A stretch of 61,301 nucleotides of DNA, the filler included, from Dugesia japonica (taxonomy: Eukaryota), in NCBI GenBank assembly GCA_001938525.1. It is 5 parts of 5 records of this genome, joined end to end, with 100 filler letters (N's around TTAATTAATTAA, not from the genome) between each part and the next. Parts side by side here need not be neighbours in the genome. Positions count along the whole stretch, not along the records: positions 40,492 to 50,463 come from MQRL01596069.1; 4 more parts are not named here. The stretch is one strand, 5' to 3'. This document shows positions 43,147 to 44,547 of this stretch, piece after piece. A program made the translations under genes and the position numbers. Within the stretch, counting starts at the first letter, position 1. Every line of letters begins with the position of its first letter. Below the pieces are notes generated by a model, which did not search any database, was not told where the DNA came from, and worked only from the letters and a program-made list of their open reading frames with translations.

Positions 43147-44547
43147 ATGAACGAAGTCCATAAAGGTAGTAATAAAGGGAGTAAGTTTATATGTGATAAT
43201 TGTGGTAAAGTGTTATTAAAAAAGAATAAATCTAGACATTTAGATTTATGTATTAATATAAAAGGAGGTGATCCAAAATCTGGAGGTGACCTTCAAAATT
43301 CAAGTGTTATCAGTAAATTATTAAAACCAATAACAACAGAAAAATATCCTGGTGAGAGACATTTATTCCACCATAATTATACTGGACCTGGAACTAGATT
43401 AGATATTAGATTAGATTCCGAAGGAAACCCATTACCAGGTGAAGAACCAGTAAATCAAGTTGATCAATCTGCATTAAAACATGATATCTCCTATAATTCT
43501 GAAGATATCCGAGAAAGACATCTAGCAGATATTAACCTAATCCATGATTTAAATAATATCCAAAACCCAACAACAACAGAAAAATTTCAGAGAGCTCTTG
43601 TAAAATTAGCTATGAAAGGTAAAATTGTTATTGGCCAATCCATAAAAGTACAGGGTCAAGAGTTATCTAAGAATAAATTAAAAATTAAACTTAAAGATGA
43701 AAAAAATAAACTTAAATTAAATCAAATGTTATCAGAAGTTGATGATAAAAATTATATATTAGCTGATGAACTTCACAAAGATTTTAAAAAACCAAAACAT
43801 TTATTAAAAGTTATTGTTCATGAAAAAGATGAAATTTGGTCAGCTGATTTAACATTTAACCAGAAAAATGTAATATTAACAGTTATTGATCTTTACACGA
43901 GATATGCATTTGCAATACTCTCTAAAAATAAAACTGGTAAAGAAACAACAAATGCATTTGAAAGTATCCTTGAAAAAAGTAATAGAGTTCCTGAGAAATT
44001 ATGGGTTGATCATGGAAAGGAATTTTATAATTCAAATTTTCAAGGTTTCTGTAAAAATAATCACATTGAAATTTATTCTACCGAGAATGAAGGTAAAGCA
44101 GTTGTTATTGAAAGGTTTAACAGAACATTTAAAAATAAACTTTTTAAACATTTTACTGCTGTTGGAAATCAGAATATAACTCAAGAACTTCTAGATAAAA
44201 TTCTAGATGATTATAATAACCATATACATTCAAGTATTAACATTACACCTAAAGAAGCATCAATTAATCCTGATAATATTATTATTAATCCTGAAAAACC
44301 TTTCTCTGAAAAATTAAAATTTAAAATTGGCCAACGCGTTAGAATATTTAAACAAAAGAAATTATTTGCAAAAGGTTATAGTTTTAAATGGTCAAAGAAA
44401 ATTTATATTATAACAAGAATCCGTGGAAATGGTAAAACTGAACCATTTACATTTGAAATTTCAAATATTAATAATAACAATAACCACAAGGGCGACAAGA
44501 TACTAGGTAGATTCTATGGATCTGAAATTCAAAAAACTATATTCTAA
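43147..44547 (+). CDS. Zinc finger + parvovirus-type phospholipase A2 + retroviral-type DDE integrase fusion
   Basis: C16/C19/H31/C35 finger; NYTGPGT and DQSALKHDISY...RHLAD (PLA2); WSAD234...WVD288HGKEF...IE322RFNRT (integrase). Confidence 0.92.
   Translation: MNEVHKGSNKGSKFICDNCGKVLLKKNKSRHLDLCINIKGGDPKSGGDLQNSSVISKLLKPITTEKYPGERHLFHHNYTGPGTRLDIRLDSEGNPLPGEEPVNQVDQSALKHDISYNSEDIRERHLADINLIHDLNNIQNPTTTEKFQRALVKLAMKGKIVIGQSIKVQGQELSKNKLKIKLKDEKNKLKLNQMLSEVDDKNYILADELHKDFKKPKHLLKVIVHEKDEIWSADLTFNQKNVILTVIDLYTRYAFAILSKNKTGKETTNAFESILEKSNRVPEKLWVDHGKEFYNSNFQGFCKNNHIEIYSTENEGKAVVIERFNRTFKNKLFKHFTAVGNQNITQELLDKILDDYNNHIHSSINITPKEASINPDNIIINPEKPFSEKLKFKIGQRVRIFKQKKLFAKGYSFKWSKKIYIITRIRGNGKTEPFTFEISNINNNNNHKGDKILGRFYGSEIQKTIF

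Follow-up and report, generated by a model that had tools for sequence, protein, structure and literature searches.

Why should one open reading frame (ORF) of a Polinton-type element join a zinc finger, a phospholipase A2 (PLA2) of the parvovirus type and an integrase, and is the resulting chain cut into its parts? These questions are raised by a locus of the planarian Dugesia japonica at positions 43147..44547 (+ strand) of the window, by which we mean the whole stretch of 61,301 nucleotides that was analysed. With moderate confidence, we read the ORF as encoding a protease-matured virion precursor that packages the integrase, within the Polinton/adintovirus lineage. Translation and the gap map confirmed the unbroken 466-residue frame described in an earlier note on this DNA: the ORF contains no stop and no N and lies wholly within an N-free stretch (40492-45104). 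The read check that the earlier note had proposed for 43630-43750 gave a partial answer, in that no indel was listed in the ORF and 0 of 8 listed substitutions produced a stop, with only 40 of 345 differences listed. The synonymous/non-synonymous split of these 40 differences rests on too small and too selected a set to reveal selection.

The PLA2 domain (residues 48-163; 43288..43635, + strand) matched Pfam PF08398 at E 2e-8, above the cut-off, in the 466-residue protein, and its YTGPG calcium loop (78-82), H112-D113 pair, Y116 and D128 are where the earlier note had placed them. H112, D113, Y116 and D128 were invariant in 15/15 aligned proteins. Modelled alone, the domain had a pLDDT of 82; among the 50 BFVD matches listed for this model, the named rows were nearly all parvovirus or densovirus capsid proteins or PLA2-like proteins, and among PDB rows the domain was covered in full by one alone, rice PLA2 2wg7, with a middling Z of 6.1 (rmsd 4.4, 92 residues aligned). 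A PDB sequence search with the PLA2 returned weak matches to capsid proteins only (best E 0.07). The fold check suggested earlier was carried out at the level of the predicted model, where Pfam and the BFVD and PDB structure matches agree with a parvovirus-type PLA2 fold. By its calcium loop, HDxxY motif, second Asp and fold, the domain is a parvovirus-type PLA2; its phospholipase activity is predicted from sequence. It resembles the PLA2 of parvovirus VP1u in fold and catalytic motifs and, unlike that enzyme, is not fused to a capsid protein. The His-to-Asp spacing is 16 residues, compared to ~22 in VP1u.

The domains on either side of the PLA2 are also largely as the earlier note had them. 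The C2HC finger (C16, C19, H31, C35; 43192..43251, + strand) has all four ligands in place, but its Pfam match (zf-C2HC_3, E 0.005) fell below the cut-off. The same C2HC spacing was present in two planarian-derived relatives, and across relatives the leader at this position was variously a C2H2/U1-type finger, a C2HC finger, a DUF5679 zinc ribbon, a basic peptide or nothing. The rve integrase core (43759..44271, + strand) matched PF00665 at E 1.9e-10, above the cut-off, with the triad D234, D288 and E322 at the positions claimed. It is followed by a beta-rich C-terminal domain (44308..44544, + strand; low-confidence model) that ends at an ELQKTxF-type motif with no Pfam match to a chromodomain, in agreement with the claimed absence of that domain. 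In the full-length predicted structure, the PLA2 and integrase cores were confident and the linkers at 38-64 and 164-197 had low pLDDT; the integrase part matched retroviral integrases.

The ORF sits in a multi-copy Polinton (adintovirus) that also encodes a capsid protein, an ATPase, a penton fragment and a protease bearing catalytic motifs, in a stretch bounded by scaffold gaps (40392-40491 and 50464-50563). The double jelly-roll capsid gene (41842..43137, + strand) matched PF21738 at E 7e-22 and was 43% identical to its homologue at locus L002. The A32-like packaging ATPase (44621..45370, + strand; Pfam E 1.7e-4) is interrupted by an N gap (45105-45291). On the minus strand lie an adenain/Ulp1-like cysteine protease (49755..50234; H78, D89, Q112, C119), which matched Peptidase_C5 at E 0.06 and is 35% identical to the protease of L016, itself a match to Peptidase_C5 above the cut-off, and the C-terminal fragment of a penton-like minor capsid protein (50326..50463; 33% over 42 residues, E 3e-6), of which 45 residues are present before the scaffold gap at 50464 cuts it off. 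The ATPase and protease were both weak by Pfam alone and clear against relatives; a PDB sequence search with the protease gave no match. Beside the protease gene is a gene for a helical protein (48876..49745, − strand) with a weak match (E 4e-4) to an ORF of L003; by eye, this protein resembles the 'Cah' protein of Adinto6405. Three poorly characterised genes lie in the same stretch. A PolB gene was absent from 40492-50463, with a PolB fragment at 33261-33965, beyond the scaffold gap, and PolB-like ORFs in relatives L010, L016 and L022. Both ends of the element, where terminal inverted repeats and a target-site duplication would lie, fall in gaps, and the only flanking inverted repeat found was gap padding. 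Among Polinton/Maverick features, we found the integrase DDE triad, the PF21738 capsid, the A32/FtsK-like ATPase and the adenain-like protease. The adintovirus criterion of Buck et al. (2024 preprint, PMC11071296) is an integrase with a C-terminal chromodomain, which the window protein lacks, as do the PLA2-integrase adintoviruses of that same source.

Contigs of two runs (~17,500 and ~17,800) aligned to 40492-45104 and were mostly 90-99% alike, numbers that suggest a very large copy family, tool depth not being equal to copy number. Expression was not seen in two RNA runs (~6% and ~25% read), which gave 3 and 5 partial reads, all less than 90% alike. Within the element, 40492-41877 holds ORFs of 230 and 123 residues together with 14/30-nt and 11-nt tandem repeats, and looks like a variable accessory region because its summed contig depth was far below that of the capsid–integrase–ATPase core. 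Past the stop codon of the integrase lies a tandem repeat of 19 nt (44546-44625), where other copies skip 75-82 nt. Two further repeated regions had no Pfam match: a 15-nt repeat array at 45350-46462 and an internally repeated gene region at 47431-48912, whose unit of ~550 nt is 64-69% alike between repeats.

The earlier note could not say how common the fusion is in databases; in our survey of homologues and the literature, the architecture proved widespread and had been given a label in public data before. Both PF08398 and PF00665 were found in 12 of 14 near-length matches to the PLA2 region, and the fusion was present in loci L001-L005, four of which adjoin capsid, ATPase or pX-like genes. 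Of the 150 top-ranked representatives (50% identity), both domains were present in 36, with PLA2 first in 35; no frequency follows from these values, because the ranking is biased towards fusions and the number of proteins passing E 1e-30 was 3,032. Aligning the integrase to viral contigs recovered 36 loci; the other viral-contig scans and the genome-contig scan found no relatives. Four loci look decayed (L008, L009, L013 and L018), with stops, frame changes or a long interruption. A tail of chromodomain length was present in 3/31 fused and 66/79 unfused integrases (11 and 17 unscorable rows, respectively, being dropped), a contrast that is inflated because the rows are related. One protein, P0165, has the reverse order in a single chain, integrase–chromodomain–linker–PLA2, with GxG just before the PLA2.

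In the supplement of PMC11071296, two adintovirus proteins are labelled 'PLA2-integrase': those of Adintovirus nemertoderma6405 (Adinto6405, BK066529) and sediment15303 (Adinto15303, BK066759). Like the window protein, they join a PLA2 in frame to an rve integrase and have no chromodomain; they differ from it in having no finger. 'PLA2X-Adenain' fusions appear in the same supplement, as do the closest published relatives, two genomes from a Dugesia flatworm (planarian) assembly, uAdinto11140 and uAdinto15034, whose proteins are labelled only 'Integrase' and which share with the window the C2HC finger, GG-DLQ, PLA2, integrase and the order capsid–integrase–ATPase. All four published proteins keep a GxG at the PLA2–integrase junction, whereas the window copy has no GxG and a 45-residue Lys-rich linker. 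Neither section 16 nor the main-text passages covered of PMC11071296 take up the fusion or how it might be processed. Section 3.2, further passages and the supplement of Starrett et al. (2021, PMC8502044) describe PLA2X only and no PLA2–integrase fusion; PLA2X has the same PLA2 domain followed by the same KxKxxGxG, but continues into a basic, pX-like tail where the window protein has its integrase. At loci L001 and L002, a pX-like protein has a gene of its own (E 0.003 and 0.0009, respectively, both below the cut-off). No such fusion appeared in the parts covered of PMC3671162, PMC5803895, PMC11296320, PMC11161782, PMC8097293 and three bioRxiv preprints, and 'PLA2-integrase' as a term was not found in main text in a literature search that mostly left out subscription papers. 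The window protein is thus a further member of a publicly labelled architecture for which we found no discussion in print.

If the chain is matured by the element's protease, cut sites should lie between its domains (↓ marks a candidate cut). The earlier note had proposed IKGG↓D (residues 38-42) as an adenain-like site. It is one of two tandem GG-D motifs (43258..43290, + strand) in the low-pLDDT linker 38-64, across which GGAGGTGA is repeated 18 nt apart. The other motif, KSGG↓DLQ (44-48), was absent from the earlier note and is the one that aligns with the motif of relatives, GG↓D[LI]Q, IKGG↓D being its tandem copy. GG directly preceded D[LIFV] in 23/27 fused proteins with a scorable leader and in 19/26 stand-alone PLA2s with a scorable leader. 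The first motif, IKGG↓D, agrees with the consensus for the adenovirus protease given in PMC4246237, (M/I/L)xGG↓x and (M/I/L)xGx↓G, but the P4 rule is not conserved across the window's family: M, L or I occupied P4 in 4/23 fused and 0/19 stand-alone GG-D sites. The site does lie between finger and PLA2, as proposed, but a cut there would remove the finger only and leave the integrase attached. Among shuffled sequences, 25% contained [MLI]xGG somewhere in the protein and 3% contained either adenain motif within the linker 36-66; because of the former value, IKGG↓D was rejected as evidence on its own. To our knowledge, adenoviruses have no integrase.

A second candidate site lies at the PLA2–integrase junction, where the aligned window sequence MKGKIVIGQS (residues 156-165; 43612..43641, + strand) contains an invariant glycine, G163. 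A GG or GxG was present at this junction in 48/56 fusions compared to 7/963 background windows, counts that, like those for GG-D, overstate independence because the rows are related; M, L or I occupied P4 in 10 of the 48. The window copy itself (IVIGQS) fits neither GG↓X nor GX↓G. The motif also occurred in 18/29 stand-alone PLA2s, and the same KxKxxGMG precedes the basic/pX tail of published PLA2X proteins; the motif therefore predates the fusion. Since both the GG-D and junction motifs occur in stand-alone PLA2s, they could be structural parts of the PLA2. This possibility leads to the strongest rival reading, that the protein is a packaging or tethering fusion, cut at GG-D only or uncut and working as one chain, with the junction glycine as an inherited end of a PLA2 helix. 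The motif's presence in stand-alone PLA2s, its absence from the scored interval of the window copy and 7 other fusions, and the position of G163 at the end of a predicted helix all favour this reading, which we regard as a possible but rather unlikely account of the family. It has difficulty with three protease–integrase fusions (P0082, P0110 and L026:2740-4248; the first two represent clusters of 70 and 49 members) that have an unrelated partner joined in frame and nonetheless carry GxG at the junction in 3/3 cases, although the stand-alone proteases examined do not end in GxG. It also has difficulty with the shortest fusions, in which the integrase helix begins 4 residues past the motif.

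The GxG at protease–integrase junctions, together with the specificity of the mavirus protease, favours a cut site over a structural motif. According to the portions covered of Born et al. (2018, PMC6048507), the protease of mavirus cleaves at GG↓X and GX↓G, and both the integrase and a cleaved hydrolase are present in the virion. The likeness is that of a clan CE protease with this specificity and of an integrase and cleaved hydrolase in the virion; as described there, mavirus differs in having integrase and hydrolase as separate genes and in its hydrolase, a predicted alpha/beta hydrolase rather than a parvovirus-type PLA2. Mavirus-type GG↓X or GX↓G motifs were present at the domain borders at family level and, in the window copy, at the N-terminal border only. 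The junction motif lay no more than 12 residues from the integrase ELH motif in 23/46 fusions, and 36/73 stand-alone integrases start within 12 residues of ELH. In three stand-alone PLA2s, the last residues are exactly GG or GQ. Both candidate sites border or lie in low-confidence linkers of the predicted structure. A relaxed cut at the window junction is conceivable by comparison with the sequences of stand-alone relatives ending IGQ or GAS-V.

Across the clade, finger, PLA2 and integrase form a single inherited chain with glycine motifs at both PLA2 borders. In the protease-matured precursor model, the integrase would be made as the tail of a minor virion protein and the finger/PLA2 part would bring the precursor into the capsid. 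A cut by the element's cysteine protease at GG↓D would then remove the nucleic-acid-binding leader and free the N-terminal helix of the PLA2. Secreted pro-PLA2s are activated by freeing the N-terminal helix, and by analogy the freed helix might activate the PLA2 here. In most family members, a second cut at the GG/GxG junction would release an integrase with a new N-terminus like that of stand-alone integrases; in the window copy, this cut may be weak or may not occur. During entry, the PLA2 would assist in breaching the endosome, with the integrase already beside the genome, much as Pol rides on Gag. The earlier proposal of a protease-matured precursor thus gains from the glycine motifs flanking the PLA2, the GxG at protease–integrase junctions and the mavirus parallel, and loses from the ill-fitting window junction and the unkept P4 rule. 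Its further suggestion, that membrane penetration is coupled to integrase delivery, stays a proposal, and packaging alone would explain the fusion.

The fusion could instead be a by-product of genome compaction, in which neighbouring PLA2 and integrase genes lost the intervening stop; the integrase would then be translated from an internal start, or would act as a transposase in the producer cell, and would have nothing to do with entry. Clade and label-change counts came from a quick tree of 138 integrase cores, which bears on this idea in both directions. In its favour, the fusion label changes 14 times over the tree, at least 5 of the changes being forced by well-supported branches, but the window protein's group (25 members, SH-aLRT 90) has 24 fused members and a sole exception that is cut by a contig start. 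Similarly, 25/56 linkers contain a Met able to start a free integrase, but 31/56 have none. An adjacent yet separate PLA2 and integrase at L022, the latter with its own ATG, and the heavy amplification of the family in its host also fit compaction; the invariant PLA2 catalytic residues do not. On balance, we consider compaction improbable. An artefact of assembly or mutation in the window copy is a highly improbable source of the single frame and is refuted at family level by independent homologues, since, despite a gap-rich scaffold and one run X3 contig that joins 43625 to 43766 with other letters between, the ORF is N-free and the same architecture recurs in the 12/14 homologues, loci L001-L005 and published adintoviruses.

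Among 37 loci (L016 and the 36 from viral contigs), the integrase is directly preceded by a PLA2 at four: L016, L020, L021 and L022. L021 is in frame at the junction. At L016:2098-2171, a candidate −1 frameshift site lies between a DUF5679–PLA2 ORF and the integrase, consisting of A AAA AAC, a 6-nt spacer and a 17-bp stem (−20.8 kcal/mol, z −3.1, with 1/200 shuffles as good) that was the most stable of 242 windows in the region; no integrase ATG precedes the first catalytic Asp. A homopolymer indel, rather than a programmed frameshift, is a possible cause of this frame change. In the published Adinto13074, where the integrase is the next entry after the PLA2, the integrase annotation begins at a Met beyond the first catalytic Asp. 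L020 was rejected as a frameshift case: its frame changes inside a conserved motif of the integrase N-terminus with no stable structure behind, and a broken in-frame fusion is therefore the likelier explanation. The evidence at L022 is ambiguous; it has an A-run but lacks both a canonical heptamer in frame and any unusual structure, and its integrase has an ATG of its own. Thus, by sequence, L016 is the one good candidate, Adinto13074 is suggestive, and L020 and L022 are unsupportive. In the parts covered, PMC11071296 predicts −1 frameshifts for penton and hexon-adenain and mentions none for PLA2–integrase.

In retroviruses, the integrase is part of the Gag-Pol structural precursor and is released by the viral protease. 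If the protease-matured precursor model holds, the Polinton integrase would likewise be packaged at the end of a structural precursor and released by a viral protease, and possible −1 frameshifting in some relatives would be a further likeness. The comparison is one of analogy and not membership, as here the virus has a DNA genome, the cysteine protease is on a separate gene, and there is no Gag or reverse transcriptase. A broader reading, which we offer tentatively, is that many Polintons package their integrase in a Pol-like manner, as the tail of a PLA2 or protease precursor reached in frame or by −1 frameshifting and released at GG/GxG, and that the in-frame PLA2 clade lost its chromodomain; the frameshift part draws on L016 and the one published genome with an integrase annotated past the first Asp. 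The interest lies in this Gag-Pol-like packaging model, the fusion itself being no discovery. Were the model correct, it would offer a retrovirus-like logic by which a DNA virus, the incoming Polinton, brings its integrase to the host genome. It would also define GG↓X and GX↓G as the cut-site rule of Polinton proteases and add indirect evidence that Polintons live as infectious particles; according to the parts covered of a bioRxiv preprint (10.64898/2026.06.19.733378), no Polinton virion has been observed so far.

Other probable mobile elements lie elsewhere in the window. By eye, fragments at 235-4230 and 55128-56325 resemble gag-pol of an LTR retrotransposon, the end of a LINE and a transposase of hAT type. 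The region 31006-33965 holds pieces of a second, decayed Polinton, including the PolB fragment, and a stretch within them is 76-82% like 47126-47447 in reverse orientation.
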